This document shows positions 11,762-64,000 of a DNA stretch of 64,000 nt, one piece after another (positions within the stretch are counted from its first letter, which is position 1; each line of letters starts with the position of its first letter). A program made the position numbers and the translations under genes. Source of the stretch: an uncultured Acidimicrobiia bacterium (GTDB lineage: Bacteria; Actinomycetota; Acidimicrobiia; Acidimicrobiales; SZUA-35). The stretch is from contig CBESNA010000019.1 of the NCBI GenBank assembly GCA_965530755.1, positions 2,102 to 66,101 of the forward strand. Reading direction: 5' to 3'. Under the pieces are notes generated by a model. The model was not told the origin of the DNA and searched no databases. It saw only the letters and a program-made list of their open reading frames with translations.

Positions 11762-13549
11762 ATGCGACGCATCGAGGACTACGCCCTGTTGAGCGACTCG
11801 AGATCTGCCGCGCTTGTCTCGAAGAGGGGATCAATCGACTGGCTCTGCTTCCCGCGCTTTGATTCCGGCGCATGCTTTGCGTCGTTGCTCGGCACACCGG
11901 ACAACGGTCACTGGTCGCTTGGCCCGGTCGAAGCCTCCCGAGTGGTGAGGAGCTACCGGGCGGGATCGCTCGTGCTCGAGACGATCCACTCAACGGCGAC
12001 CGGCGTCGTTGCCGTGATCGACGCGTTGGTGCCTGTGGGTGACGCACATCGCTTGGTGCGGCGCGTCGAAGGTCGCAGCGGCACCGTGGCGATGCGAACC
12101 GAGATGCGGGTCCGGTTCGACTACGGCAGCATCGTGCCCTGGGTCACCAGATCCGACGGTGCAGTATCAGCGGTGGCCGGCCCTGAGGCTCTCGTGCTGC
12201 GCACGCCCATCGAGTTGCACGGTGAGGGGTTCGCAACGGTCGGTGACTTCAGCGTGGGGACAGGTGATCTGGTCTCGTTTGAGTTGGTCTGGCACGAGTC
12301 ACACCAGGTCGCACCACCTCCGATCGCTGTCGACGACGCTGTCGAGGCGACGCTCGACTGGTGGCAGGAGTGGTCGAATCGGCTGACCTATGACGGCGCA
12401 TATCGCGACGAGGCCCGTCAATCCCTGACGGTTCTCAAGGGTCTTTCTCATGGGGCGACCGGCTCGTTCGTCGCTGCACCCACGACGTCGCTTCCTGAAT
12501 GGGTCGGGGGCTCTCGTAACTGGGACTATCGATACTGCTGGCTACGCGACGCGACGTTCACCTTGTTGGCGCTGCTGAAGGGCGGCTGCGTCGACGATGC
12601 CCGCTCCTGGCGGGATTGGCTCGTGCGTGCGGTGGCCGGTGAGCCGTCGCGGTTGCAGATCATGTACGGGCTCGCCGGTGAGCGACGGTTGCCCGAACTG
12701 GAGCTTCCGTGGTTGGACGGTTTCGAGGGCTCGAGACCGGTCAGAGTCGGCAACGGGGCCGCTGACCAAGTCCAACTCGACGTCTTCGGCGAGGTCATGG
12801 ACGCCATGCACCAGGCCCGACTGCACGGTTTGGCTCCCGAGGAGAATGCCTGGCGGGTGCAGGAAGCGATGATGGAGTGGCTCGAAGGCAACTGGCAGGA
12901 GCCCGACGAGGGCATCTGGGAGGTTCGTGGCGGCCGGGACCAATTCACCCATTCAAAGGTGATGGCCTGGGTGGCCTTCGACCGGGCGGTCAAGGCCGTC
13001 GAGCAGCACGGGCTCGGCGGGGACGCAGCGAAGTGGCGCAGACTGCGAGCGCAGGTGCACGCCGAGGTGTGCGCCAACGCCGTGGACCACCGTGGGGTGT
13101 TCACCCAGTCCTACGGCGGACACGCGCTCGATGCGTCGACACTGATGATCCCTCTCGTCGGTTTCCTCCCGGCAAACGACCCGAGGGTGGTGGCCACGGT
13201 GGAAGCCATTCAGAGCGAGCTCACCACCGACGGATTGGTGATGCGTTATCAGGTCGGTGACGCTGGCGACGGCGTCGGTGGAGAAGAAGGAGCGTTTCTG
13301 CTGTGCTCCTTCTGGCTCGTCGACTGTCTCGCAATGATGGGCCGGCCTGACGACGCCACGTCCCTCTACGAACGGCTTCTGGGTCTACGAAACGACGTCG
13401 GTCTCCTGGCCGAGGAGTACGACCCCGTCGCCGGCCAACAACTCGGGAACTTTCCCCAGGCCTTCTCCCACATCGCGATCGCCAGCAGCGCCATGACACT
13501 CTGCCCCGACCATGTCGGTCCCAACGAAGAACGAGGACTTCAGCCATGA
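11762..13549 (+). CDS. Glycoside hydrolase family 15 (glucoamylase/trehalase-like)
   Basis: From the ATG at 11762 the protein reads MRRIEDYALLSDSRSAALVSKRGSIDWLCFPRFDS, a typical GH15 N-terminus. The C-terminus has (alpha/alpha)6-barrel motifs (WDYRYCWLRD, EEGAFLLCSFW). Confidence 0.85.
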   Translation: MRRIEDYALLSDSRSAALVSKRGSIDWLCFPRFDSGACFASLLGTPDNGHWSLGPVEASRVVRSYRAGSLVLETIHSTATGVVAVIDALVPVGDAHRLVRRVEGRSGTVAMRTEMRVRFDYGSIVPWVTRSDGAVSAVAGPEALVLRTPIELHGEGFATVGDFSVGTGDLVSFELVWHESHQVAPPPIAVDDAVEATLDWWQEWSNRLTYDGAYRDEARQSLTVLKGLSHGATGSFVAAPTTSLPEWVGGSRNWDYRYCWLRDATFTLLALLKGGCVDDARSWRDWLVRAVAGEPSRLQIMYGLAGERRLPELELPWLDGFEGSRPVRVGNGAADQVQLDVFGEVMDAMHQARLHGLAPEENAWRVQEAMMEWLEGNWQEPDEGIWEVRGGRDQFTHSKVMAWVAFDRAVKAVEQHGLGGDAAKWRRLRAQVHAEVCANAVDHRGVFTQSYGGHALDASTLMIPLVGFLPANDPRVVATVEAIQSELTTDGLVMRYQVGDAGDGVGGEEGAFLLCSFWLVDCLAMMGRPDDATSLYERLLGLRNDVGLLAEEYDPVAGQQLGNFPQAFSHIAIASSAMTLCPDHVGPNEERGLQP

Positions 13550-13592
13550 CCACCTTGTTCACGTCAGCAGGCAGCCGACTAGCGTGACATTG

Positions 13593-14279
13593 ATGAGTTC
13601 GAGGTTGGCACGATACGGAGCCTGGCTTGCGTGCTGCTTGAGCCGCGGGCCACGTGCCCCTCTCGGCGAGAGCGATGTCGAGCTGTTGGCGAAGGAGATG
13701 GGGGAGGAGGCCTACGCCGGCGGCACGTTCGTCTTCCGCCAGGGAACAGCAGCGGCGAAGGTTCACGTCTTGCGGTCCGGGACAGTCGAACTGTCGAGAA
13801 CCGTCAAGGGCCGCCGGGTGACCCTCCAGGTTCTTCGGCCCGGCGATGTGTTCGGCGACGTCCCCGTCTTTCTGGGTGAGCCCGAGCCCTTCGATGCGCG
13901 CGCCGTCGAAGACTGCACGGTGCTGTCTCTGAGTGCCGATGAGCTCTACCAGCTGTTGCAGACCCGACCTCTCGTGGCCCGACGGTGGTTCGTCTCACTC
14001 GCCGAGCGCATGGCGGGACTCCAGAACCGCCTTGTCGACCTGCTCGCGGGAGGCATCGAGGCCCAACTCGCGTCGATCCTGCTCCGAGAGGCAGATAGCA
14101 ACGGCAGCGTCCACATAACCCAGAACAGCCTCGCCGGGATGCTGGGTGTTCAGCGCTCCAGCGTGCAACGTGTTCTGAAGCTGCTCGAGGCCGCCGGACT
14201 CATCGAGTTGCACTATCGCTGCATCGACCTCATCGACCAGGGTGGTCTGGTCTCGTTGCTCGAGGAACCTGACACCTAG
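13593..14279 (+). CDS. Crp/Fnr family transcriptional regulator
   Basis: A cNMP-binding-like segment (FRQGTAAAKVHVLRSGTVELS..GDVFGD) and a C-terminal HTH (SLAGMLGVQRSSVQRVLKLLEAAGLI) are present. The start is uncertain, lying between 13512 and 13593. Confidence 0.8.
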   Translation: MSSRLARYGAWLACCLSRGPRAPLGESDVELLAKEMGEEAYAGGTFVFRQGTAAAKVHVLRSGTVELSRTVKGRRVTLQVLRPGDVFGDVPVFLGEPEPFDARAVEDCTVLSLSADELYQLLQTRPLVARRWFVSLAERMAGLQNRLVDLLAGGIEAQLASILLREADSNGSVHITQNSLAGMLGVQRSSVQRVLKLLEAAGLIELHYRCIDLIDQGGLVSLLEEPDT

Positions 14280-14456: not shown

Positions 14457-14615
14457 GGCGACTGCAGGTGGACGGGCTCGACGTGTTCGCATGGCGGCGT
14501 CGCTGGTGTTCGTCGCGTTGGCCAGATGACCTGACGACGATGGTCGCGGTATTCGCCGCCGGGCACGAGGCCGGACACCACGATCCGCGATAGCAGCGGA
14601 TGTTAGAGTCCGCCG

Positions 14616-16184
14616 ATGTCGACGACTCCCGATCCGGTGATCCAAACACCCGCGACGGTGCAGATTCGCAGGCGGCTCGAGAAGCGGGTGGCTTTCAGCC
14701 TCTCCATGTTGGCTCGGCCAATGCGCACCTATCGCATGCTCCGCGACGAGAGCTTGGTCATTGCGTTCCCGAATTATCGCCGGCACGCGCAGCGCGTGGT
14801 CCGGCAGACCGTTGTCGGCCTCGTCTCGTTGGGGGGCCTGCTGATCTATGGGATCGTCTCTTCGACAATGTGGCTGACTGCGCTGGCGCTGGCGGCGCTG
14901 ACATCGGTGGTCGCCGCCGTCGTGTGGAACCGCTGGCACAGTGGGTCGACGGCACTCGTGCGGCGCGGATTGCCACCGGGCGAACTCACCGGCTTGGCGT
15001 GCCCGTTGCTCGATGTTGACCACCACCAGAGGCTCTTCGACGAACACGGCCCCACATTCACGACGAATCACCTCCACACACCGCTCGTCGCCGTGTACGG
15101 CCTCGAGAGAGGGCAGGGTGTGTTGCGTGAATGTCAGGCCGACCTCAGCCCGATGCCCCGTCCTGACAACTTCCTGGTCGAGGGCGGTTTCGTGAGGGTG
15201 CTCGAAGGCGACGACCATCGTCGGATGCGCGCCTCGCTTGCTCCTCTCTTCGCCGCCGGCGTTCTCGAACGACTCCGTCCCCGTGTCGAGGTGAGCGTCG
15301 ACGCGAGCCTGGCTGATTGGGATAGCGGCGGATCGCTGCTGCACCCCCGTCCGCTCGTAGAGCACCTCGTGCTGGACATGTGGCTGACGCTGTTCTTCGG
15401 ACCCAGCGAGCGCTACGAACCCGAGCGGCTGGCCCGGCTGGCAGACCTCTACCGCCAGATCGATCACCTGACTCCGACGCCGGAAATGCGCGACGTGCAG
15501 GACCAAATCGTCGAGGAGGTCCAGGCGCTCGGGCGCCTCCCTGACCTACCGAACTGTTTGTTGCGCGAACTCACGGCACGGTCTCCGGAGAGCCTCGACG
15601 ACCTCCCTCTGGTCGAGAACCTGGTGCATCTCGTCACATCGTCGCACGCCGACATGTCTGGGCTCTTCGATTGGATCGTGAAGTTCCTCGCCGACAACCC
15701 GAAGTGGATCGATCGTCTCCGTGGTTCAGCTCCCGAGCAGACAAAGATCAACGCCGACGCCTTCGTCTCCGAATCGCTCCGGCTCGCCCAGAGCGAAGTG
15801 TTGTTGCGCGTCACGAACCGGCCGACCAACGTTGAGGGCCACACCATCCCGCGCCGGTGGATGATTCGTGTGCTCGTGCGGGAGAGTCATCGCGACCCCG
15901 CAGCGTTCGAAGATCCGCTCGAATTTCGGCCGGAACGATTCGTATCGGAGAGCTACGGGCGCCTCGAGTACTCGCCGTTCGGGCTCGACGGGCGGTCGTG
16001 CATCGCCGAGAGCCTGGCGAGGATGGCGAGCGAGGTCTTCGTGACCGGCCTGGCGAGGCGATTCGATGTCGAAACAGTCGAGGACGGGCCGCTTCAACTC
16101 AGCATTCACCGTCACGCCGCGCCGAACCACCATTGGAAGGTCAGGCTCAGCCCAGCGCCGGTGGCTCGAGCCGGCACCGCGTAG
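14616..16184 (+). CDS. Cytochrome P450 with an N-terminal two-helix membrane anchor
   Basis: P450 motifs are present: ExxR (ESLR), PERF, and the Cys-ligand loop FGLDGRSCIAESLA. The N-terminal ~110 aa contain two hydrophobic helices (VVGLVSLGGLLIYGIVSS, WLTALALAALTSVVAAVVW). Confidence 0.9.
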   Translation: MSTTPDPVIQTPATVQIRRRLEKRVAFSLSMLARPMRTYRMLRDESLVIAFPNYRRHAQRVVRQTVVGLVSLGGLLIYGIVSSTMWLTALALAALTSVVAAVVWNRWHSGSTALVRRGLPPGELTGLACPLLDVDHHQRLFDEHGPTFTTNHLHTPLVAVYGLERGQGVLRECQADLSPMPRPDNFLVEGGFVRVLEGDDHRRMRASLAPLFAAGVLERLRPRVEVSVDASLADWDSGGSLLHPRPLVEHLVLDMWLTLFFGPSERYEPERLARLADLYRQIDHLTPTPEMRDVQDQIVEEVQALGRLPDLPNCLLRELTARSPESLDDLPLVENLVHLVTSSHADMSGLFDWIVKFLADNPKWIDRLRGSAPEQTKINADAFVSESLRLAQSEVLLRVTNRPTNVEGHTIPRRWMIRVLVRESHRDPAAFEDPLEFRPERFVSESYGRLEYSPFGLDGRSCIAESLARMASEVFVTGLARRFDVETVEDGPLQLSIHRHAAPNHHWKVRLSPAPVARAGTA

Positions 16185-16195
16185 CCCATCGACCG

Positions 16196-16645
16196 ATGCA
16201 GCGTGTTTGGGTGCGTGTCGCCGACCTTCGGATGCTTGCCGCCGCTGTTCCCGTGTCCATTTCTGTCCGGCGGGCGCTCCGCTCGCACCAAGACCTCTCT
16301 GCACTGCTCGCCTCCGTCGAGGCCGTGGCCTCAGCCCATCAGCCTCGCCGGTTTTGGGGCGCCCCGGCTCGTGTCCCGATCGTCGCGGGTTGGTGCTTTC
16401 GTTTCACCGACCGGTCGTGTGTCGGGCGGTCGCTCACGGCGTTCGCACTACTACGTCGCCAGGGAGCGTCACCCAGTTTCGTCAGCGGCGTCGTCGCCCT
16501 CGACCGCAGGGATACCAAGACGTTCCTCGACGGTCACGCGTGGGTCGAACTCGATGGTTCGCCGCTCGCGGACGCGGATCTCGCGGTGGCAAAGCGATAT
16601 CGCGAGATCTACCGCCATCCGCCGTCAGCTACGAGAGAGCGCTGA
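16196..16645 (+). CDS. Lasso-peptide-type B2 leader peptidase (transglutaminase-like cysteine protease)
   Basis: 149 aa, starting at an ATG 11 nt after the P450 stop. The sequence DRSCVGRSLTAFALLRRQGASPSFVSGV......LDGHAWVELDGSPL matches the Cys...His(AHAWVE-type)...Asp layout of PF13471 B2 proteins. Confidence 0.8.
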   Translation: MQRVWVRVADLRMLAAAVPVSISVRRALRSHQDLSALLASVEAVASAHQPRRFWGAPARVPIVAGWCFRFTDRSCVGRSLTAFALLRRQGASPSFVSGVVALDRRDTKTFLDGHAWVELDGSPLADADLAVAKRYREIYRHPPSATRER

Positions 16646-16780
16646 CTACGTGAGGCCGCTGCCGATCGACCCGGTGAGGGTGCTCCAGCCTGGATGTTCG
16701 GTGAGTGCCGGGGGCTCGTAGACCTCACGCTCGGTGGCCGCAGCCGTGGGGTCAGCGTCGCAATTCTCGTCTGGGTCCAT
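16646..16780 (-). CDS. Candidate RiPP precursor peptide, 44 aa (MDPDENCDADPTAAATEREVYEPPALTEHPGWSTLTGSIGSGLT)
   Basis: Hand-translated from the minus strand, since it is below the ORF-track size cut-off. ATG is at 16780 and TAG at 16648-16646. It lies 101 nt downstream of the RRE-fusion gene on the same strand. The motif Y21-x2-P24-x-L26-x9-T36-G37 reproduces the lasso leader positions Y-17/P-14/L-12/T-2 exactly. GC3 is about 80% by hand count. No strong SD is seen. Confidence 0.6.
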   Translation of the reverse strand: MDPDENCDADPTAAATEREVYEPPALTEHPGWSTLTGSIGSGLT

Positions 16781-16881
16781 TCGGTCAGGGTACTCAACGG
16801 GCTCGGTTGGCGCCAGCAAAGGACACCGTTGGCCATGTCGGAGGAAGGGTCCGCGACGATCTCGATGGGGTCGCAGCGGCC

Positions 16882-17562
16882 TCAGCCATCCGGCACGACC
16901 AGGCCAGCATCGGCGAGTTGGGCGACCAGGAGTGCCACGTCACGTCGAGCGGCCTCCTCGTCGACCGCAAATGTGGCGATGACGCGCTCGACGGCTGTCT
17001 CGATTCCTTCGTCGATCGACTCCCAGACCACCCTTCCGGCCGGGTTGAGATCGAAAATTCTCTGTGTGCGAGGATCGAGGAGCACCGAGCTTGGGTCGAG
17101 GTCGGTGTACCTGACCGCAGGATCTCGGCGCCAAGAGTGCGTCCGGCCCGGATAGGCGGCACCGTCATCTTGATTGGTGGCTGCGGCTGAGGCGTGCCGG
17201 TGCAACCAGAGCCAACGCTCATCGAGCCTGTGCAGACTCACTGTCCATCGGATCGGGACCGTCAGGGGATTGCCGTTCACGGAGAGATGGATGGTCAGCG
17301 ACGCTGCCACCGTTGCGGCATCACCGCGTCGGGTGAGGTGCCGCCAGTGCCACTCGAATCGTTCAGCGGTCGCCTCGGAGAAGTTCCGTTCGAACAGGCT
17401 CCGGATCTCGGCTCGGCCGGTGCACAACTCGTCGGCACCCGTGCCGATCAGCGAGATGTCATCACCCCCGTCGAACAACTCCATCAGCCCGTCGATGTCT
17501 TTCGCACAGTACGCGTCTGCGTAGACATCGAAGGTGGCGAGTATTTCAGTCTCTTCACTCAC
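16882..17562 (-). CDS. NTF2/SnoaL-like domain fused to a PqqD-family RiPP recognition element (lasso B1-like)
   Basis: The C-terminus LLDPRTQRIFDLNPAGRVVWESIDEG..ATFAVDEEAARRDVALLVAQLADAGLV matches the PqqD/RRE pattern. The N-terminal ~130 aa look like a DUF4440/SnoaL fold (FDVYADAYCAKDIDGLMELF...WLWLHRH). GTG at 17562 has a GGAG 7 nt upstream. The longest ORF starts at GTG 17610. Confidence 0.75.
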   Translation of the reverse strand: MSEETEILATFDVYADAYCAKDIDGLMELFDGGDDISLIGTGADELCTGRAEIRSLFERNFSEATAERFEWHWRHLTRRGDAATVAASLTIHLSVNGNPLTVPIRWTVSLHRLDERWLWLHRHASAAATNQDDGAAYPGRTHSWRRDPAVRYTDLDPSSVLLDPRTQRIFDLNPAGRVVWESIDEGIETAVERVIATFAVDEEAARRDVALLVAQLADAGLVVPDG

Positions 17563-17678
17563 CGAACAGCTCCATCTCTGACAGTCATGCTCAGGAGTTC
17601 CGAATATCACGCGGCGCTGCGTTCCGGATCACGGACCGAGAGAGTGATCTCGAGGCGGCCGGTGATCGGAGGCAACAG

Positions 17679-19580
17679 TCAGCTTCCGTCGACCATGTCG
17701 ACGAGCCCGAGACCAGCTCGTACTCGCTCGATTCGATAGTGCGCATCGGGCCCGTTCAGGAAGTTCGGGCGAAGTGGTGGTGTGTGGAGAATCTCGCGCC
17801 GTTGGAGCTCCTCGATCACTGCTGTGTGTTCTGGCGCAATCTTGCCGACGAGGAGGGTGTCCAGCCGTCCGCCTTTGTGGACGTAGTCAACGACGCCCTG
17901 AAGCCCACGCAGGTAGACGGCATCCTTCACCAAGCCGCCGCCTCGGTGCACCCGCATGGCCACCCCGAATGCACTTTTGCTCGCCATGCCGATGTCATCG
18001 ACGAGCAGTCGGTAGGTGTCGATGAATTCTGCGCCGTCTGCGACCGACCGCGCAGCGATGACCCGAGCGGCCAACGTCCGAAGTCTCGCCGGGGTGAGAC
18101 CGCCAACGATGTACTCGGCGAACACGGCCAAGCCCTCCTGGAGCTCATCGTGGCGCGCCAACCCGGAAGCGAGCAAGCGGAATGGTTGGGCTCGGCCGTT
18201 CCAGTACGTGACGACGTGTGTCCCGACCTCGTGCTGTATGAGTGCCTCGACGCGGTCCGCAGGTATCGACATGGATTTCCCCACCAGGAGATTGCCTGCC
18301 GAGACCATCAGGGACGTCACGTCGTCGCGCAACTCCACGCGGGGCGTGATCGAGCTGTCGACGGAGCGGTAGGTGGCGATTTCGACTTCGGCTGCTGCGG
18401 CGAAGGCTTCGCCCGAGATGCGCCTCCCCGAAGTGGTTGCCTTCTCCCGGTCCATCGACTCCAGAACCGATCGTGCCAGCTCGATTGACGCGTCGTCGAC
18501 CCTCCCGTAGAGAGCAACGCTCGTCGGGAGGAATCGCGGGGTCAGCCTGGCTCCGATGAGCGAGAGTTTGAGCTCCAACTCCACCCGCTTCTCGCGAAAC
18601 AGTGCTTCGAGAGTCGGGTCCTCGACGCGTTCGATCTTGATGTTGAAGAGCTTCCGCTTCAGTATCGATGGATCGACCGTGTGCGGGCGATATTGGAAGC
18701 GTGGGGCCTTGTTGAACTTCGAGGCTCGAAAGCTCCGAAACGCGGCATCAGAGTTGACTGGCGTCACCGTCAGCAGCAGATCGAACGACTCGGCGACACT
18801 CGCGAGCTCACGATCGATGTCGCGTACAGCGCGAACCACGGCGCGGCGGCCCAGCGCTTGGTAATGCAACGGATGCGACGACGTCTCCTCTCGAGCGAAA
18901 ACGAACGCCGCCTGCGCAAGCGAGCGGGCCACCTGGTGGATCATCGCTCGCTTCACCAGTGGGTAGCTTTCGCCCGTCGTCGAGGATTCCCATGCCGGAT
19001 AGGTCATCAAGCCGACGGCGTGGGTGTTCGTGGCTTTAGCCGCCGCCGGGGACAGAAGGCGCCGGACGTGCGGGGGCGCCAGCGGTACCGATGGACTCAG
19101 CCTCACTTCGGCCTTCTGGCCAAGAATCCTCACGCGAGCGAGTTCCTTGGCCAACGCCGTGACTGCCGGTGTGTCGACGAGTTGTTTCGGTATGGCGATT
19201 TCGAAGTCCGGCGTGATGTCCGCGGAGACCGAACTGGCTTCCTCGACCTCATTCTTCAGCCAGACCTCCACGAGGAGGAAGCCGCCAAACGATTTGGACT
19301 GGAGGGTTGCCACCCGCTCGACAAGATCAAGGACAAACTTCTGTGCAGACGGGGCCGATGGCGCAATGATGTACGCGGCCTGGCTCGCCACGAGTGATTT
19401 CAGGGCGGCGTCGGCGGCCCCGGGCGGAGGTCGATAGACAACCAGAAACGGGAGCAACCGGTCGATGTGCACACGACCGTCTGAGGCCAAGTTTCGTCTG
19501 ACACGCTCACCCTTCTCGACGCGAGCTGCGATCTCGTCGAGCAGCGCTGGGCTGAGCTTGGTCGTTCGTTTTGCTGCCAT
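17679..19580 (-). CDS. DUF1704 'QEGLA-motif' metallopeptidase (MATCAP-like tyrosine/phenylalanine carboxypeptidase family)
   Basis: HEVGTH (an HExxH motif) is followed by DELQEGLAVFAEY. The large size is typical of TIGR02421-type proteins. An ATG lies at 19580; the longest ORF starts at GTG 19628. Confidence 0.8.
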   Translation of the reverse strand: MAAKRTTKLSPALLDEIAARVEKGERVRRNLASDGRVHIDRLLPFLVVYRPPPGAADAALKSLVASQAAYIIAPSAPSAQKFVLDLVERVATLQSKSFGGFLLVEVWLKNEVEEASSVSADITPDFEIAIPKQLVDTPAVTALAKELARVRILGQKAEVRLSPSVPLAPPHVRRLLSPAAAKATNTHAVGLMTYPAWESSTTGESYPLVKRAMIHQVARSLAQAAFVFAREETSSHPLHYQALGRRAVVRAVRDIDRELASVAESFDLLLTVTPVNSDAAFRSFRASKFNKAPRFQYRPHTVDPSILKRKLFNIKIERVEDPTLEALFREKRVELELKLSLIGARLTPRFLPTSVALYGRVDDASIELARSVLESMDREKATTSGRRISGEAFAAAAEVEIATYRSVDSSITPRVELRDDVTSLMVSAGNLLVGKSMSIPADRVEALIQHEVGTHVVTYWNGRAQPFRLLASGLARHDELQEGLAVFAEYIVGGLTPARLRTLAARVIAARSVADGAEFIDTYRLLVDDIGMASKSAFGVAMRVHRGGGLVKDAVYLRGLQGVVDYVHKGGRLDTLLVGKIAPEHTAVIEELQRREILHTPPLRPNFLNGPDAHYRIERVRAGLGLVDMVDGS

Positions 19581-19730
19581 CACACCCGTGCCTTGGCGGT
19601 TCCGAGATGGAACTGCACCGAAGGACACAAGCTAGCCCTCGCGCCGGACGATCAACCGGACAAGGGCGAACGCTCGGGTACGAGATGGTCTACGATTCCG
19701 CTCCTCACCGCCGATCGCCGCGCCAGCGTC

Positions 19731-20804
19731 ATGTCGGATCGGCAACACCAAGGAGCTGCAGTGCGTATAGGTTTCGTCGTGAACGACATCAAGACCGAGG
19801 AGGCCGGTTACACCACGACCCGCCTCGGTGTAGCTGCCACGAACCGGGGACACGAGGCCTGGACGATCAGCGTCGGTGACCTTGCCTACGATCCAGACGA
19901 ATTGATCAAGGCCAAGGCCACCCGGCCGCCGAAGTCACGGTACAAAGACGGCGTTGGGTACCTCCGCGATCTCCACGGCAAGGCGGCCATCAGAGAGCGG
20001 ATCACGGTCGACGAACTCGACGTCCTGTTCCTCCGAAACGTTCCCTCGGACGAGAAGTCCAGCCGCGAATGGGCCAAGACAGCCGCCATCGACTTCGGCC
20101 GAGTCGCGATGCGCCACGGCGTCATCGTTCTCAACGATCCGAACGGTTTGGCCAAGGCCGCGAACAAGATGTACTTCCAGCTGTTTCCCGAAGAGGTCAG
20201 GCCAAGGACCCTCATTTCTCGCGATCGGCAAGAGATTCGGGATTTCGTTCATGAGGAAGGAAGGGCCGTCCTCAAACCGCTGAGTGGATCGGGAGGCGAA
20301 AACGTCTTCCTGGTTCGCGCCGACGATCCGGCCAACCTGAATCAGATGATCGATGCCGTCAATCGGGACGGCTACATCATTGCGCAGGAGTATCTCGAGA
20401 AGGCCGAGGACGGCGACACCCGTCTGTTCTTGATGAACGGCGAACCTCTTCGTCACAAAGGCCGGTATGCAGCTTTCCGGCGCGTGAGGAAGGGCGGCGA
20501 CATGCGTTCGAATCTCCACGCCGGAGGGTCACTGGCCAAGGCAACGCTCACCGAGGAGTCACTCGAGCTGGCCGAGATCGTTCGCCCGAAACTCGTCCAG
20601 GACGGAATGTTCCTGGTTGGTATCGACATCGTTGGCAACAAGCTCATGGAAATCAACGTGTTCAGCCCCGGCGGGCTGGGTTCTGCGCAGAAGCTCGAAG
20701 GAGTGAACTTCAATGACGCAGTGCTCGACAGCCTGGAGCGCAAGGTGAGCTACATGGGCTACTACAAGCGCAACTTCAACAACCCGGAAATGAACACATT
20801 GTGA
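19731..20804 (+). CDS. Glutathione-synthetase-like ATP-grasp ligase
   Basis: GshB-type ATP-grasp motifs are present: LKPLSGSGGENVF, GDTRLFLMNG, RSNLHAGG, GIDIVGNKLMEINVFSPGG. It is divergent from the DUF1704 gene. Confidence 0.8.
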   Translation: MSDRQHQGAAVRIGFVVNDIKTEEAGYTTTRLGVAATNRGHEAWTISVGDLAYDPDELIKAKATRPPKSRYKDGVGYLRDLHGKAAIRERITVDELDVLFLRNVPSDEKSSREWAKTAAIDFGRVAMRHGVIVLNDPNGLAKAANKMYFQLFPEEVRPRTLISRDRQEIRDFVHEEGRAVLKPLSGSGGENVFLVRADDPANLNQMIDAVNRDGYIIAQEYLEKAEDGDTRLFLMNGEPLRHKGRYAAFRRVRKGGDMRSNLHAGGSLAKATLTEESLELAEIVRPKLVQDGMFLVGIDIVGNKLMEINVFSPGGLGSAQKLEGVNFNDAVLDSLERKVSYMGYYKRNFNNPEMNTL

Positions 20805-21583
20805 CCAGCCCCGAGTGGCGTATCACGCGGGGCGACGACCCCGTGGTTGCAACAGCTATCCATGCCGGACACGAGCTGCGACCTGAGGTCGCTGCCCTGA
20901 TGGCACTGTCTGACGCAGACCAGCTCCGGGAAGAGGACCCCTTCACGGACAACTGGGTGGGGATCGCCAAGAACTCCATCGTCGTCGATCGATCTCGTTT
21001 CGAGCTCGATCTCAACCGACCCCGAGACAAAGCGGTGTACCTCGTTCCCGAGGATGCATGGGGCCTCGACGTATGGAGCTCGCCGCCCCCCGAAGAAGTC
21101 AAACTTCGGTCTCTCGAGATCTACGACCGTTTCTACGAGGAGCTCGGAGCCCTCTGCGACGCATTGGTCGAGACCCATGGTCATGTGCTCGTGCTGGATC
21201 TCCATTCCTACAACCACCGGCGGAGCGGACCGGACGGCCCGGTCGACGACCCTGAGCTCAACCCGGAAATCAACTTGGGGACCGAGTCGATCCATGAGGC
21301 GTGGGGTCCGGTCTTGCGCAGCTTCACCGAGACCCTGAGCGAACTACCATTCTACGACGATTCGATAGATGTACGAGCGAACGTGAAGTTCAAGGGCGGA
21401 CAGATGACACGGTGGGTCAACGAGCGCTACGGCGACCGCGGGCTGTCGATCGCAGTCGAGATGAAGAAGATCTACATCGACGAATGGTCCGGCGTGCTCG
21501 ACGAGAGCATCACCGCCACCATCGGCGGACTCTTGGAGGCAGCAGCGCAATCGGCGCGACAGAGCCTCTCGGAAAAGGCCTGA
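20801..21583 (+). CDS. N-formylglutamate amidohydrolase (FGase) family protein
   Basis: The GTG start overlaps the upstream stop (GTGA). An FGase-like pattern is present (AIHAGHELRPE...EDPFTD...LDLHSYN). Confidence 0.75.
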   Translation: MTSPEWRITRGDDPVVATAIHAGHELRPEVAALMALSDADQLREEDPFTDNWVGIAKNSIVVDRSRFELDLNRPRDKAVYLVPEDAWGLDVWSSPPPEEVKLRSLEIYDRFYEELGALCDALVETHGHVLVLDLHSYNHRRSGPDGPVDDPELNPEINLGTESIHEAWGPVLRSFTETLSELPFYDDSIDVRANVKFKGGQMTRWVNERYGDRGLSIAVEMKKIYIDEWSGVLDESITATIGGLLEAAAQSARQSLSEKA

Positions 21584-60093: not shown

Positions 60094-62259
60094 TCATCGC
60101 GGTTCGCTGTCGTTCTCTGGTTCGGGTGTGGTGGGGTGGATCGTGACCCCCGGGTTGAGGCCGGTGATTCGGATCGAACCGTCTGCGACCTCGATCGTTG
60201 CTCTTCGGGCTCCGACGGCGACTTGTTCGACCCGGAGTCCATCGAGCTCGGGACCAGGGTCGGGTCGGATGTGGACTCGGCCGGCGGGAATGTCGGGGTC
60301 GAGGCCGAGGAGGGATCTGAGGACCAGCAGCGGAGCAGCCGCTGCCCACGCTTGGGGCGAGCAGGATGACGGGTAGGGGACAGGGGCTGGGAGGTCGTCA
60401 CGGCCGAAGCCGGCGAAGAGCTCTGGAAGGCGTCCTGCGGTGAAGGTCGACGCGTCGAGGAGACCGGCAGCAAGCTGGGCGGCTTGTTCGTGATGGCCGT
60501 AGCGGGCGAGGCCGGCGACGGCGATGGCGGTGTCGTGGGGCCACACTGAGCCGCAGTGATAGGAGAGGGGGTTGTAGCCGCCGTTGGCAGTATCGAGGGT
60601 GCGCAACCCCCAGCCGCTGAACAGGCCAGGGCCGGTGAGCGACGCCGCAACGGCGGCCGAATGCTCGGTGTCGGCTATGCCGGTCCACAGGCAGTGACCA
60701 GGGTTCGACGTCGCACTGGCGATGGGTTGCTTGTCGCGGTCGAGCCCGATGGCGTAGGTGCCGAGGCTGTCGACCCAGAAATCGGCGTTGAATCGGTGCT
60801 TGAGTGCACTCGCTTCGCTGCGGCGCTGCGCCGCCATCGCACGGTCGCCGAATGCGTCGGCGAGCTCGGCTCGGCCCAAGAGGGCCCCGTAGACGTAGGC
60901 CTGTACTTCGCAGAGCGCAATGGGGGCCTCGGCGATGCTGCCGTCGGCGTGACGGATGCCGTCCCAGGAGTCCTTCCAGCCTTGGTTCTCGAGCCCTTGA
61001 GGGGTGGAGCGCTGGTATTCGACGTAGCCGTCGCCGTCGGAGTCTCCGTAGTTGTCGACCCAATCGAGGGCGCGGTCTGCATTGGGGAGTAGCTGGTCGA
61101 CGAGGTCGCGGTCTGCGGTCCAACGCCAATACTCGGCCAGGAGCATCACGAACAGGGGGGTGGCGTCGATGGTGCCGTAGTAGATGTTGTGGCCGCCGAG
61201 CGATCGGGCGGTTGAGGCGTCGAATCTGACTTCGTGCAGGATCCGGCCGGGTTGCTCCTCTGTGAGGGGGTTTTCCGTTGCGCCCTGGAGCTCGGCCAGC
61301 GAGTGCAGAACGCCACGGGCGAGGTCGTGATCGACGATCAGCGCCATCCAGGCCGCCAGGATCGAGTCGCGACCGAACAGCGTCATGAACCAGGGCGCTC
61401 CCGCCGCCACGACCACGCGACTGGGATGGTCGGGGTCGAAGATGCGCAAGGCGCCGAGATCTTCGATCGCTTGGTCGACGGCCCGCGCCATCGAGGGATC
61501 GCCGGCGGTCATGCGGGGTGCGTCGTTTCGCCACTGATGGAGACGTCTGACGGGGATGGCGTCGGCCACGGGATCACCGCAGCGGTAGCTCGGCTCGATC
61601 GTGTTCTGGTCGATCTGGAGCTGTATCTCGGTGCACAGGCGCCAGGCACCACCACCGCTGATGTCGACCAGCCAGCCGTCGTTGTCATTGGGAGCAGGGC
61701 AGTGGCCCAGGCTGAGGGTCATGGCGCTGTGCGGACAGGAGAGCTCGGTGCCGTCGGCGGTGCGACGGCGTTCGACGTGTTGGGTGTCGCGGATGCGTCC
61801 GGCTTTGACGTCGAACAGGCTGGCGAAGTCGCTTCTCGCCTGGAGCCGCACACGTACCGTCGAGGTTGTCGCACCGTGGTTGCGGATCTCGAGGTCTTCG
61901 CGCATTCCTCGCCCGACATGGCGGCGGCGGATGACTGACAGGGCCGAGTCGGCGCGACCTGCCGTCGCCGGCGTTCGGCCAACGAAAGTTGCGGAGAACG
62001 GACCGTTGGCGATGGTGCTCAGCGACTCGACGCGGGCTCCGTCGATGGTGAGCACGAGCCGGTCGAGCACGCGCGTGTCCGACATGAAGAGCCCGTGGGG
62101 TCCGCTGCCGTCGATGTCGCCGGATCTAGCGCTCACCGCAAAGGTGGAGCCGTCAACGAGCGTCACTTCCGTGCCCGGACCAGCCGGGGTCACCTGTTCT
62201 GCGTCCTGAGTCCAGGGGGTGTCGGCCGGCGAGGGAGGTTCGAAGTCTGACCGGTTCAT
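60094..62259 (-). CDS. Amylo-alpha-1,6-glucosidase / glycogen-debranching-enzyme family protein (paralog 1)
   Basis: The ATG at 62259 overlaps the upstream stop. GDE_N-like (VDGSTFAVSARSGDI..GLFMSDTRVL) and GDE_C-like (PWFMTLFGRDS, GWKDSWDG, YHCGSVWPHD) blocks are present. The Arg/Pro-rich upstream part of the track ORF is rejected. Confidence 0.85.
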   Translation of the reverse strand: MNRSDFEPPSPADTPWTQDAEQVTPAGPGTEVTLVDGSTFAVSARSGDIDGSGPHGLFMSDTRVLDRLVLTIDGARVESLSTIANGPFSATFVGRTPATAGRADSALSVIRRRHVGRGMREDLEIRNHGATTSTVRVRLQARSDFASLFDVKAGRIRDTQHVERRRTADGTELSCPHSAMTLSLGHCPAPNDNDGWLVDISGGGAWRLCTEIQLQIDQNTIEPSYRCGDPVADAIPVRRLHQWRNDAPRMTAGDPSMARAVDQAIEDLGALRIFDPDHPSRVVVAAGAPWFMTLFGRDSILAAWMALIVDHDLARGVLHSLAELQGATENPLTEEQPGRILHEVRFDASTARSLGGHNIYYGTIDATPLFVMLLAEYWRWTADRDLVDQLLPNADRALDWVDNYGDSDGDGYVEYQRSTPQGLENQGWKDSWDGIRHADGSIAEAPIALCEVQAYVYGALLGRAELADAFGDRAMAAQRRSEASALKHRFNADFWVDSLGTYAIGLDRDKQPIASATSNPGHCLWTGIADTEHSAAVAASLTGPGLFSGWGLRTLDTANGGYNPLSYHCGSVWPHDTAIAVAGLARYGHHEQAAQLAAGLLDASTFTAGRLPELFAGFGRDDLPAPVPYPSSCSPQAWAAAAPLLVLRSLLGLDPDIPAGRVHIRPDPGPELDGLRVEQVAVGARRATIEVADGSIRITGLNPGVTIHPTTPEPENDSEPR

Positions 62260-64000
62260 GCGTGCCTGCTTTGGTCGGAGGCCCCGGAGGAGACCTTTGG
62301 GCAAGGTGTCGCCGAGGAAGTTCTGCCCTCGAACTCGATCTCGAGGTCTCCTCGCACGAGGTCGCATCGGACCTCGTTCGAGCCGTCTGGCTTCCGTTGC
62401 AGGATCAGGTTCAGCGCGGCGTTGCCGATCTCGATGTTGTCGACACGTAGGTCGGGCAGCCAGCTCGGGAGAGTGGCCGCGATGGTGAGCCGATTCTTGT
62501 CGGCGTCTGGCACGAGGCCGAGCAGAGTCGTGAGTAGGTGGACGATTGCGCCTGATGCCCAGGCCTGGGGGACGTTGGCGCCGAGGTATGGCACTGGGAA
62601 CCCGTTGTGGTCGCGAGGAAGGCCGGCGAACAGTTCGGGGAGTCGCCGGTCCTTGAATCGCTCGGCGGCGTCGAAGATCCCTCCGGCGATCTGGGTGGCC
62701 TCGTTGTCGAGCCCATACCGTCTCATGCCCGCAGCGAGGATCGCGTTGTCGTGGGGCCACACCGATCCCCGGTGATAGGAAAACGGGTTGTACGACACAT
62801 GGTCGGCAGAGAGGGTGCGGACCCCCCAGCCGCTCCACATGTCCGGCGCCAGCAGCCGACGCGCTGTCTGCACAGCGCGGTCGGGGTCGACGGCGTGAGT
62901 CCACAGCAGATGGCCTGCGTTGGAGGCGACAGTTCGAATTGGCTTCTTCGCCCCGTCGAGGCCCAGATAGTAGGTGCCCTCGTCCTCCCACCAGAACCGT
63001 TCCTCGACGAGCTCGGAGAGGCGGTCGGCCTCGGAACGTAGCCGATCCGCGGTCCGCTGCTCAGCCCAGACTTCGTCGACGATGTCGGCCCAGGCCCGCT
63101 TCGCAGCGATGACATAGCCTTGGAGCTCACACAAGGCGAGCGGCAATTCGGCCCGCTGGCCGTCCTCGGTGACGATCGCGTCGCCGGAGTCCTTCCAGCC
63201 CTGGTTGTAGTAGCCGCCGCGTCGAGCTCGGCTCGAATACTCCTGGAGACCGTCGCCGTCGATGTCACCGTCGGTGTCGATCCAGGCCAAGGCCCGCTCG
63301 ACGTTGGGTCGGATCGCGTCGAGCACGCTGCGGTTCCCGTGCCAACGCCAGGCTTGGGCCGCGGTCCAGACATACAGCGCCGTCGAGTCGTGGCTCCCGT
63401 AGTACGGAGTATGTGGAATCAGTCGGAAATGGGCGAGTTCGCCGCGGCGCAGCTCGTGGAGGATCTTGCCGGGCTGCATGTCGCGCTCGTCGTCGTAGCC
63501 GTCACCCTGAAGCGCACCGAGCGCGTAGAGGGCGCCCACTGGGAACATTGGGGACAACGCCAGGGTCTGCAGGGCCACGACGAGCGAATCGCGGCCGAAC
63601 AGCGCCGTGAACCACGGCACTCCCGCAGCCGGCACCCATCTGGCATCGTCGGGGACCGCGGTGGGCTCGTTCGCGGTTGCAAGCGCATCGTGTTGATGGA
63701 GGCGCAAGCTGGCGAGATCGTCCACCGCTCGCGATGCGGCATCGCTGGGCCCAGCGGCCGAGGTCGAGAATCGGGCGGCCTGAGCGAGCCATGACCTCCG
63801 GGCCTCGTCGATCGAGTGCGAGCCACCGGTGAGCGCATGGCACGACCGCACCGGAGACGCGAGATCGAGCTGGCCGCCGGCCGGTTCCCACACAAGGCAG
63901 GTGTGCCACCGCTGACCACGGTCGAGCTGTACCCGGAACGAGATGCCGCCGTTCGCGAATTCAGGAGCCGAATCCGAACGCTCTGCCCTGACAGTAAGGG
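62256..64000 (-). CDS. Amylo-alpha-1,6-glucosidase family protein (paralog 2), 5'-truncated by the window edge
   Basis: The same blocks are present (PWFTALFGRDS, GWKDSGD, YHRGSVWPHD). I checked by hand that the reading frame stays open upstream of 63893 to position 64000, so the true start lies outside the window. Confidence 0.8.
   Translation of the reverse strand, partial: LTVRAERSDSAPEFANGGISFRVQLDRGQRWHTCLVWEPAGGQLDLASPVRSCHALTGGSHSIDEARRSWLAQAARFSTSAAGPSDAASRAVDDLASLRLHQHDALATANEPTAVPDDARWVPAAGVPWFTALFGRDSLVVALQTLALSPMFPVGALYALGALQGDGYDDERDMQPGKILHELRRGELAHFRLIPHTPYYGSHDSTALYVWTAAQAWRWHGNRSVLDAIRPNVERALAWIDTDGDIDGDGLQEYSSRARRGGYYNQGWKDSGDAIVTEDGQRAELPLALCELQGYVIAAKRAWADIVDEVWAEQRTADRLRSEADRLSELVEERFWWEDEGTYYLGLDGAKKPIRTVASNAGHLLWTHAVDPDRAVQTARRLLAPDMWSGWGVRTLSADHVSYNPFSYHRGSVWPHDNAILAAGMRRYGLDNEATQIAGGIFDAAERFKDRRLPELFAGLPRDHNGFPVPYLGANVPQAWASGAIVHLLTTLLGLVPDADKNRLTIAATLPSWLPDLRVDNIEIGNAALNLILQRKPDGSNEVRCDLVRGDLEIEFEGRTSSATPCPKVSSGASDQSRHA

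Follow-up and report, generated by a model that had tools for sequence, protein, structure and literature searches.

In actinobacterial lasso-peptide biosynthesis with split B proteins (for example, fusilassin FusA/FusE/FusB/FusC, or TbiB1 and TfuB1 bound to their leaders), a PqqD-type RRE (B1) and a transglutaminase-like Cys-His-Asp leader peptidase (B2) recognize leader positions -17, -14, -12 (YxxPxL), and -2 (Thr, rarely Ile or Val) (PMC10368454). An ATP-dependent cyclase (C protein, Asn-synthetase homolog, PF00733) then closes a macrolactam between the new N-terminus and an Asp or Glu at position 7-9 of a core of about 13 residues or more. In phosphorylated lasso peptides (paeninodin type, and the Bradymonas Bsf system), leaders with Ile or Val at -2 occur, and the HPr-kinase-like BsfK requires B1 and phosphorylates a Ser in the core (PMC10368454). 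In P450-crosslinked RiPPs (biarylitides, atropitides, cittilins, and aminopyruvatides with ApyO), a P450 is encoded beside a small precursor and couples aromatic residues (Tyr, Trp, or His) of the core. Lasso clusters with tailoring P450s also exist (PMC10664482), and biaryl-linked lasso peptides such as nocapeptin retain a cyclase and a full-length core. Triculamin is made with a precursor, a cyclase, and an acetyltransferase, without B proteins (PMC12070363), which shows that the lasso toolkit can be dismantled.

The locus studied here lies in a 64-kb window (the whole analyzed stretch of 64,000 nt from an uncultured Acidimicrobiia bacterium). It shares with the split-B systems the leader spacing, a discrete PqqD-type RRE, and a B2 protease, but differs in having no cyclase within the window, a very short core, a peptide gene on the strand opposite to B2, and, in its family, a P450 and a P-loop protein as additional conserved partners. 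It is the mirror image of triculamin, because B1 and B2 are kept and the cyclase is missing. Literature searches found no description of a cyclase-less B1/B2 cluster with a P450 or a ScmC-like protein.

The peptide gene, its leader, and its core

The minus-strand ORF encodes MDPDENCDADPTAAATEREVYEPPALTEHPGWSTLTGSIGSGLT, exactly as read in the earlier note, and its stop codon abuts that of the convergent B2 gene without a spacer (Table 1). The note's observation was confirmed: Y21, P24, L26, T36, and G37 are where it placed them, and the residual core after a cut following G37 would be SIGSGLT, seven residues without Asp or Glu. The published fusilassin precursor segment, KYTAPQLAKVGEFKEATG followed by WYTAEW (PMC12338566), aligned without gaps over residues -18 to -1 with VYEPPALTEHPGWSTLTG followed by SIGSGLT, matching at Y(-17), P(-14), L(-12), an aromatic at -6, T(-2), and G(-1). 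The peptides reached only 11.7-12.7 bits on the NCBIfam lasso_leader_L3 model (cutoff 19), with only model positions 1-9 aligned, and YxxP-type recognition motifs are shared by RREs of several RiPP classes (PMC12710340).

Table 1 Features of the locus (positions within the 64-kb window)
Feature	Positions	Strand	Description
Crp/Fnr-type cNMP-binding regulator	13512..14279	+	Upstream of the P450; may belong to the cluster
Cytochrome P450	14616..16184	+	522 aa; hydrophobic N-terminal extension of about 105 aa (residues about 61-104, membrane anchor predicted from hydropathy); in an operon with B2, 12-nt gap
Lasso-B2-like transglutaminase-fold cysteine protease	16196..16645	+	149 aa; stop TGA at 16643-16645; convergent with the peptide gene
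Precursor-peptide gene	16646..16780	-	44 codons plus TAG; ATG at 16780; stop 16648-16646
Predicted leader	16670-16780	-	Residues 1-37
Predicted core	16649-16669	-	Residues 38-44 (SIGSGLT)
YxxPxL RRE-recognition motif	16703..16720	-	Codons Y21-E-P-P24-A-L26 (-17 to -12)
Predicted B2 cleavage site	16670..16675	-	Codons T36-G37 (-2 and -1); cut after G37
Promoter-like element	16787..16815	-	TGGCGC (16815-16810), 17-nt spacer, TACCCT (16792-16787), then 6 nt to the ATG
Remnant of the 5' end of the deleted P-loop (ScmC/HprK-like) gene	16816..16881	-	Includes the codons DPIEIVAD (16872-16849)
SnoaL-PqqD fusion ORF	16882..17610	-	Lasso-type RRE (B1) about 16882-17139; junction about 17134-17145; SnoaL/NTF2 domain upstream; gene callers start the protein at 17562

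The pattern Y..P.L.{9}T. occurred once in the six-frame translation of the window, in this ORF, against about 0.16 occurrences expected by chance, which is only modest evidence by itself. The decisive evidence was conservation. Homologous peptides were found in all 10 related loci whose sequence covers the expected position: eight main-clade loci reached through B2, plus L021 and L023 reached through the P-loop protein (related loci are denoted by L numbers). An exhaustive phmmer search of protein databases with the peptide added two more, as well as two false positives, which were repeat proteins (P0151, cadherin-like, and P0153) whose scores were the sum of many weak repeats. Degenerate-DNA scans of genome and metagenome contigs for the leader motif found only loci that were also reachable through B2 or the P450, plus one chance hit (L013). 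Absence of a conserved small ORF at homologous loci, or loss of the YxxPxL motif, had been set beforehand as grounds for rejecting the gene; both were examined and both came out in favor of a real gene. Gene callers called the homologous peptides in L004, L005, and L017.

The spacing Y-x2-P-x-L-x2-H-x2-W-x3-(T/V)-G was identical in all 14 peptide variants, with Y, P, L, H, and W invariant; T-G was invariant in the main clade, and V-G was found in L021 and L023. Thr(-2), or Ile/Val(-2) in phosphorylated lasso systems, is the known B2 determinant (PMC10368454), although cleavage at this site is inferred here. In the conserved 25-codon block, pS was 0.3-0.8 and pN was 0.05-0.29 in nearly all 45 pairs, indicating purifying selection on the frame. 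GC3 of the ORF was 0.80, whereas the GC content of the window was 0.636.

The nominal cores were 3-10 residues long (consensus S-I/M-G-S-G plus a variable tail, with only the last 0-5 residues varying): SIGSGLT, SMSSGVR, SIGSGIP, VITS, SMGSGSLG, SIGSGVPG, SIGSGM, SIGSGIRA, SIGSGRLP, SMGSGLP, SIGSGIT, VGS, and VGITCPGGVC, none of which has an acidic residue, and SIGSGIPDRF (L010), which has D8 followed by a 2-residue tail. They contain no Tyr, Trp, or His, and Phe in L010 is the only aromatic residue. The nominal core is therefore too short and lacks the acceptor needed to form a lasso, as the earlier note had stated.

In an ungapped alignment of eight upstream regions, the columns CT(G/T)GC ... 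TAnnnT ... ATG were invariant. This promoter-like element, which suggests a leaderless mRNA, was kept in both gene arrangements (peptide after B2, or between P450 and B2), but it is an inference from a pattern: a generic sigma-70 promoter and terminator scan found nothing relevant. An Rfam search of 13-20 kb also found nothing.

Neighboring genes and rearrangement of the window's copy

The fusion ORF matched Pfam SnoaL_3 and PqqD (1.1e-13 for PqqD). The best NCBIfam hit for the PqqD half was lasso_PqqD_Strm (54.5 bits, below the cutoff of 70), and the only significant PDB hits of the RRE profile were the lasso B1 proteins TbiB1 (1.2e-7), a lasso PqqD chaperone in 9x90 (9x90_B; 5.6e-6), and TfuB1 (2.2e-5). 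The B2 gene product matched Pfam Transglut_core3 and scored 41.1 bits on NCBIfam lasso_biosyn_B2 (cutoff 33). Its C75, H114, and D128 were invariant in 15 homologs, and dN/dS was 0.23 against L015; a B2 profile found no relative in the PDB. The P450 matched Pfam p450, and its best NCBIfam hit was the RiPP P450 ApyO, at 95.7 bits, far below the cutoff of 525. The FGxDGRSC heme-Cys and ExxR motifs were invariant in seven homologs, and the nearest PDB relatives were E-class P450s.

No Asn-synthetase-like protein was found among the 34 window ORFs scanned with Pfam, which include every GC3-supported ORF of 342 aa or more outside long antisense ORFs, or among the called genes of L004-L023, which include 8 kb upstream in L004 and L005; MAG and metagenome contigs cannot exclude a cyclase encoded elsewhere in the genome. 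P450, B2, RRE, and peptide co-occurred in every main-clade locus long enough to show all four (L004, L006, L008-L010, L012/L028, L016, L019, and L020). For P450, B2, and PqqD, dN/dS was about 0.2-0.3, including the window lineage. In most relatives, the peptide gene sits antisense between the P450 and B2 genes, not after B2.

The earlier note missed a fourth conserved gene. Every main-clade and L021/L023 locus with enough sequence encodes a P-loop protein next to the RRE, except the closest relative, L025. This 301-335 aa Walker-A protein, whose gene overlaps the RRE gene, showed weak similarity to ScmC (8 of 13 members, best E-value 1.5e-4) and to HprK_rel_A and HprK_rel_B (3 of 13 members each, E-values 0.02-0.07, below any significance cutoff for HprK-type kinases). 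A PDB profile search returned no match, Pfam at E ≤ 10 showed only Walker-A noise, the AF2 model had a pLDDT of 56, and Foldseek matches to it were meaningless. Deinococcales MAGs shared only the PqqD plus P-loop pair, with no B2 or matching peptide.

In the window, a deletion of about 0.9 kb removed the P-loop gene, and tblastn found no P-loop homolog anywhere in the window. Nucleotide homology to L004 and L016 continued past the PqqD stop to about 16850 and resumed about 45 nt upstream of the peptide ATG, and PIEIVAD matched the P-loop N-termini RPIEIVVD and RPVEIVV. The RRE lost both candidate start codons, with the internal Met changed to Arg, and is fused in frame to a SnoaL gene; the junction was read directly, the fusion was unique among 289 homologs, and the fusion protein was seen on three contigs. 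A search with the whole fusion ORF returned only stand-alone SnoaL proteins and no cluster relatives. The AF2 model showed two domains joined by a disordered linker. We considered whether the SnoaL domain functionally replaces the lost P-loop enzyme and rejected this as unsupported, because the SnoaL part is 79-80% identical to ordinary stand-alone genes and the junction looks like a simple deletion. L025 (86% nucleotide identity) carries a different deletion of about 0.7 kb, which removes the B2 3' half, the peptide, and most of PqqD.

Interpretation of the locus

We interpret the ORF as the precursor (A) gene of a small, undescribed family of RiPP-type clusters, found mainly in Acidimicrobiia, which reuses the lasso leader-processing module but makes no lasso (probability roughly 0.6). 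In this view, the gene is transcribed from its own conserved promoter, probably as a leaderless mRNA; the RRE binds the Y21-x2-P24-x-L26 motif; and B2, positioned by the RRE and by T36, cuts after G37, releasing SIGSGLT here and the other short cores in relatives. Before or after cleavage, the peptide would be modified by the putatively membrane-anchored P450 and, in relatives, by the P-loop enzyme, which may phosphorylate the conserved Ser at core position 4, or the C-terminal Ser of the shortest cores, by analogy with BsfK. The analysis itself shows that the gene is real and under selection, that its leader matches the lasso rules position by position, that the RRE and B2 are lasso-type and intact, and that no cyclase or acceptor residue is present at this locus; expression, binding, the cleavage site, B2 activity, the order of steps, and all chemistry on the core are inferred. 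A core of 3-10 residues without Tyr, Trp, or His gives no obvious substrate for a P450 whose nearest curated relative, ApyO, crosslinks tyrosines. As a derived version, the window's copy may make a simpler product or none.

The interpretation given in the earlier note was partly supported. Its lasso-type leader, the adjacent RRE fusion and B2, and the short acid-free core held, whereas its alternative, that HPGW (29-32) belongs to the true, P450-crosslinked core, as in biarylitide- or atropitide-type RiPPs, was not supported; it is weakened but not excluded, and we consider it unlikely. In this reading, the segment after T-G would be a follower or recognition tail removed by B2. In its favor, H29 and W32 are invariant, the nominal cores contain no aromatic residue apart from Phe in L010, ApyO, the nearest curated P450 family, forms a biaryl crosslink, and His at -9 is not known from canonical lasso leaders. 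However, W32 aligns exactly with Phe(-6) of the fusilassin leader, and H and W are equally conserved in L021, whose cluster, bounded by a GGDEF-EAL gene and an acyl-CoA dehydrogenase gene, contains no P450, and in L023, whose contig ends just past the peptide and shows none; the conservation therefore does not track the P450. In addition, the H-W spacing is i,i+3, whereas characterized P450 RiPP crosslinks are mostly i,i+2, the P450 scores far below the ApyO cutoff, and S-I/M-G-S-G after the cut site is itself conserved.

It remains possible, though less likely than not, that the family is functional elsewhere while the window's copy is a relic disabled by loss of the P-loop enzyme and the accidental fusion, with the remaining genes not yet damaged. 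The separate deletion in L025 suggests independent decay in this sub-lineage. On the other hand, the peptide, B2, RRE domain, and P450 of the window are intact and keep every family-invariant residue, dN/dS against the closest relatives is 0.23-0.25 (the same as between other members), the deletion precisely spares the promoter-like element, and the RRE half is predicted to fold as a separate domain. That the whole family is a degenerate lasso cluster that lost its cyclase and most of its core, with the small ORF a pseudogene remnant without function, would agree with the lasso-type components and the missing cyclase and acceptor, but is very improbable: the same architecture and short core are conserved across loci whose B2 proteins have diverged to 57% identity and in a second clade with 31% P-loop identity, selection acts on peptide and enzymes, and the peptide gene changed position while keeping its promoter-like element. 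A chance ORF, of which GC-rich DNA contains many, is effectively refuted by the conservation, the low pN relative to pS, the GC3, and the position next to a cognate RRE and B2.

More tentatively, these loci may define a new RiPP class in which B1 and B2 have been uncoupled from the cyclase and re-partnered with a ScmC/HPr-kinase-like P-loop enzyme and, in Acidimicrobiia, a membrane-anchored E-class P450, to make linear, Ser-modified and/or oxidized peptides of 3-10 residues. These would be among the smallest leader-dependent RiPP products and the first natural use of lasso B1/B2 outside lasso biosynthesis. Lasso B1/B2 proteins are regarded as dedicated to lasso peptides, and genome-mining tools such as RODEO and antiSMASH rules require the cyclase, so clusters of this kind go undetected. 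Such a pathway would show that the leader-processing module is portable between RiPP classes, would point to unknown chemistry by a membrane P450 and a ScmC-like ATPase on an aliphatic, Ser-rich mini-core, and would provide a naturally minimal substrate for studying what B1/B2 need downstream of the cut site. The window also shows how such a cluster is rearranged or dismantled.

The family is rare and easily overlooked, with about a dozen loci found across collections holding billions of proteins. The regulator upstream of the P450 matched Pfam cNMP_binding and HTH_Crp_2 and, although the association is suggestive only, proteins containing a cNMP-binding domain also sit just upstream of the P450 in L005, L006, and L017.

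Genomic setting of the small ORF

The minus-strand ORF translated exactly as given in the earlier note (MDPDENCDADPTAAATEREVYEPPALTEHPGWSTLTGSIGSGLT), and its stop codon directly abutted the TGA of a convergent plus-strand gene. The GC3 of the ORF was 0.80 in a window of 63.6% GC. The pattern Y..P.L.{9}T. occurred once in all six frames of the window, whereas approximately 0.16 occurrences are expected by chance. The motif alone is therefore only mildly surprising, and the case rests on context and conservation.

Pfam and NCBIfam searches gave the gene order listed in the table. The gene that converges with the small ORF, 12 nt downstream of a cytochrome P450 gene, encodes a transglutaminase-fold protein that passed the curated NCBI lasso_biosyn_B2 cutoff (41.1 bits; cutoff, 33). 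On the other side of the small ORF, a single ORF joins a SnoaL/NTF2 domain to a PqqD domain, and the best NCBIfam hit for the PqqD half was the lasso PqqD chaperone model. The three genes that follow look like a functional trio unrelated to the peptide. Pfam scans of 34 window ORFs, including every GC3-supported ORF of 342 aa or more outside long antisense ORFs, found no Asn-synthetase-like lasso cyclase. The rest of the window encodes housekeeping functions such as hut, suf, and G6PD. Two long overlapping ORFs near the end of the window both hit MGH1-like glycoside hydrolase or glycogen-debranching domains, which may indicate a frameshifted or mis-started gene.

Coordinates of features in the window and in related loci (L numbers denote contigs carrying related loci)
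Feature	Sequence	Position	Strand	Remarks
Crp-type regulator	window	13512-14279	+	cNMP-binding domain
Cytochrome P450	window	14616-16184	+
B2-like transglutaminase-fold protein	window	16196-16645	+	149 aa; TGA at 16643-16645
Small ORF	window	ATG 16780 to TAG 16648-16646	-
SnoaL-PqqD ORF	window	17610-16882	-	242 codons
Apparently unrelated trio	window	17679-21583
MATCAP/QEGLA-motif protein	window	19628-17679	-	member of the trio
Glutathione-synthetase-like ATP-grasp protein	window	19593-20804	+	member of the trio; NF009110, 456 bits
FGase-family amidohydrolase	window	20801-21583	+	member of the trio
Overlapping MGH1-like ORFs	window	60094-62991 and 62256-63893	-	together 60094-63893
Region matched by L025	window	14582-16393, then 17092-17143
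Mid-B2 to PqqD 5′ junction	L025	2460-2527		uncultured Acidimicrobiaceae MAG
Stand-alone SnoaL	L022	2177-2605
cNMP-binding protein upstream of P450	L005	4487-6148
cNMP-binding protein upstream of P450	L017	790-1515
ParE toxin gene and small upstream ORF	L004	5629-6178
Peptide with core SIGSGIPDRF	L010	2025-2171	-
2OG-Fe(II) oxygenase	L019	4079-5050
PqqD and P-loop pair	L033	9417-11836		Deinococcales MAG; convergent MFS-like membrane protein follows

Related loci and the peptide family

A search with the SnoaL-PqqD ORF returned 289 proteins. All except the window's own protein were stand-alone SnoaL proteins of approximately 142 aa (up to 80% identical); among these proteins, the fusion is therefore unique to this window. 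A search with B2 found 14 homologs at 57–83% identity, and their contigs shared one architecture: P450 (487–538 aa) followed by B2 on one strand, converging with PqqD (76–88 aa) followed by a 313–335 aa protein with no Pfam hit (the P-loop protein) on the other strand. A six-frame motif search found a homologous small ORF in every locus whose sequence covers the expected position. An exhaustive phmmer search of 1.84 billion representative proteins added two more peptides (P0150 and P0152). Two more distant loci, L021 and L023, were reached through the P-loop protein, and both have PqqD, the P-loop protein, B2, and a homologous peptide. L021, bounded by a GGDEF-EAL gene and an acyl-CoA dehydrogenase gene, contains no P450, and the L023 contig, which ends just past the peptide, shows none. 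The named genomes were Acidimicrobiia or Acidimicrobiaceae MAGs. Degenerate-DNA scans of the genome and metagenome collections found nothing further, so the family is rare.

Proteins with a cNMP-binding domain lie just upstream of the P450 in several family members (Crp-type in the window, and fused to an MFS transporter in L005, L006, and L017), which may indicate cyclic-nucleotide regulation or export. In L004, a ParE toxin gene and a small upstream ORF (a likely toxin-antitoxin pair) lie immediately upstream of the P450. In L019, a 2OG-Fe(II) oxygenase gene lies divergently next to PqqD and may encode an extra tailoring enzyme.

The 14 peptide variants, divided at the predicted cleavage site (leader cells are empty where only the core is given)
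Source	Leader	Core
window	..EREVYEPPALTEHPGWSTLTG	SIGSGLT
L015	..YEPPELTEHPEWNILTG	SMSSGVR
P0150		SMGSGLP
P0152	..YEPPTLTEHPGWGSVTG	SIGSGIT
L016		SIGSGIP
L004	..YEAPTLTEHQEWDMLTG	VITS
L005		SMGSGSLG
L017		SIGSGVPG
L012		SIGSGM
L008	..YVRPSLTEHAEWNVVTG	SIGSGIRA
L010		SIGSGIPDRF
L019		SIGSGRLP
L021	..YEPPVLETHGVWMGMVG	VGS
L023		VGITCPGGVC

Y, P, L, H, W, and the final G were invariant. Position -2 was T in the main clade and V in the distant clade (L021 and L023), whereas the N-terminal ∼16 residues and the last 0–5 residues were variable. The L010 core is the only variant with an acidic residue (D8) and an aromatic residue (F10); the closely related L008 ends in ..GIRA, and the C-terminal tails overlap the variable 3′ end of the P450 gene on the opposite strand. 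In the conserved 25-codon block, pS was 0.3–0.8 and pN was 0.05–0.29 in nearly all 45 pairs. The frame is therefore under purifying selection.

The gene sits either after B2 (window, L004, L015, and L016) or antisense between the P450 and B2 genes (the others). In both arrangements, the main-clade gene keeps the same upstream element: CT(G/T)GC(G/T)C, 17 nt, TAnnnT, 6 nt, ATG. We read this element as a promoter for a leaderless mRNA, which is an inference. L021 and L023 have a GGAG Shine-Dalgarno sequence at this position.

Leader, core, and predicted processing

The fusilassin precursor segment from -18 to +18 is printed as KYTAPQLAKVGEFKEATG, followed after the cut by WYTAEW... (PMC12338566). 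The window peptide aligned to it without gaps, from V(-18) to G(-1) and the S that follows. Y, P, L, T, and G coincided, and W32 fell on Phe(-6). Ile/Val(-2) has been reported in phosphorylated lasso peptides (PMC10368454). However, the NCBIfam lasso_leader_L3 model gave only 11.7–12.7 bits (cutoff, 19) over its first nine positions, and YxxP-like motifs are also read by RREs of other RiPP classes (PMC12710340). A profile of the family's PqqD proteins found only lasso B1 structures significantly in the PDB (TbiB1, 1.2e-7; 9x90_B, 5.6e-6; TfuB1, 2.2e-5). B2 keeps invariant C75, H114, and D128.

The P450 is intact, with invariant FGxDGRSC and ExxR motifs, and carries a conserved hydrophobic N-terminal extension of approximately 105 aa (Kyte-Doolittle 1.3–2.0 over residues ∼61–104). 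Its nearest solved relatives are E-class enzymes such as CYP120, BM3, and CYP3A4, and it is not a typical soluble bacterial RiPP P450. The P-loop protein of the relatives has an invariant GxSGxGKTTT motif and overlaps the 3′ end of the RRE gene. It showed only weak similarity to ScmC (8 of 13 members; best E-value, 1.5e-4) and to the HprK-related kinases A and B, and its fold could not be resolved. A ScmC-annotated relative also sits beside a PqqD gene (locus L024). Deinococcales MAGs (L031–L035) keep only the PqqD and P-loop pair, followed by a convergent MFS-like membrane protein; no B2 was detected there by tblastn, and no peptide with the Y..P.L..H..W motif was found.

The observation made in the earlier note is confirmed. 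Its interpretation was supported in part: the reading of a lasso-type leader with a non-lasso core is supported, whereas the alternative that HPGW is the real core, crosslinked by the P450, is not. Two defining lasso features fail, because there is no cyclase among the window ORFs scanned and no Asp/Glu acceptor in a core of adequate length. The HPGW alternative is weakened because W32 occupies the usual aromatic -6 leader position, because H and W are just as conserved in L021 and L023, whose visible clusters contain no P450, and because S-I/M-G-S-G after the cut site is conserved. It is not excluded: His at -9 is unusual, and the nearest curated relative of the P450, ApyO, makes a Tyr-Tyr crosslink. 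However, the score of 95.7 bits (cutoff, 525) does not allow the function of ApyO to be transferred.

In this view, the system would work like the first half of split-B lasso biosynthesis (RRE binding, then B2 cleavage). It resembles phosphorylated-lasso clusters in having, in relatives, an RRE-adjacent P-loop enzyme, and P450-tailored RiPPs in having a P450, but it meets the defining criteria of neither. Triculamin clusters, which have a cyclase and no B proteins, are the mirror image (PMC12070363). By analogy with the B1-dependent kinase BsfK (PMC10368454), we infer an RRE-guided, ATP-dependent modification of a core Ser, which is unproven. The conservation of the peptide, the selection on its frame, and the match of its leader to lasso positions come directly from the sequence comparisons, whereas the leaderless promoter, RRE binding, B2 cleavage, and any modification of the core are inferred. 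Leader-guided RiPP biosynthesis with the lasso B1/B2 module is already known; what differs here is the use of that module without a detected cyclase, and literature searches found no description of this architecture. We estimate a roughly 45% chance that it is a bona fide new RiPP class producing very short modified peptides. Because the window's copy is a truncated derivative and no chemistry can be assigned, it is of less interest than the earlier note proposed, but the interest stays high because the family is real, conserved, undescribed, and missed by cyclase-dependent mining rules.

Rearrangement of the window's copy

No P-loop homolog was found by tblastn anywhere in the 64 kb. Nucleotide homology to L004 and L016 runs through PqqD and approximately 30 nt beyond its stop, a stretch that still encodes DPIEIVAD, which matches the P-loop N-terminus, and it resumes approximately 45 nt upstream of the peptide ATG. 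This is a deletion of approximately 0.9 kb that spares the promoter-like element. In addition, stand-alone SnoaL ends in ...AAYPGQAN followed by a stop codon and stand-alone PqqD starts with MSPSWGRDPVVMF..., whereas the window reads ...AAYPGRTHSWRRDPAVRYTD..., with no in-frame start codon and with the internal Met now Arg. This is a precise in-frame fusion. AF2 modeled it as a confident SnoaL domain, a disordered linker of approximately 23 residues, and a separately folded C-terminal domain (pLDDT ∼73–84).

The closest relative, L025, has an intact P450 that is 85% identical to the window's. A deletion of approximately 0.7 kb joins mid-B2 to the 5′ end of PqqD, so that L025 has lost the B2 3′ half, the peptide, and most of PqqD, while its PqqD 5′ end keeps its own start codon. 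The cluster is therefore being rearranged or dismantled in this sub-lineage. However, dN/dS for the P450, B2, and PqqD was approximately 0.23–0.25 between the window and its nearest relatives, the same as elsewhere in the family, and the window's surviving genes show no sign of prolonged neutral drift. It is possible, but less likely than not, that this copy is non-functional.

The SnoaL half of the fusion is 60–80% identical to stand-alone SnoaL proteins. The few homologs with source annotation were mostly from Alphaproteobacteria, although the cluster's relatives are Acidimicrobiia, and a 79%-identical stand-alone copy lies on a different contig of the same assembly as L004. This may reflect horizontal transfer.
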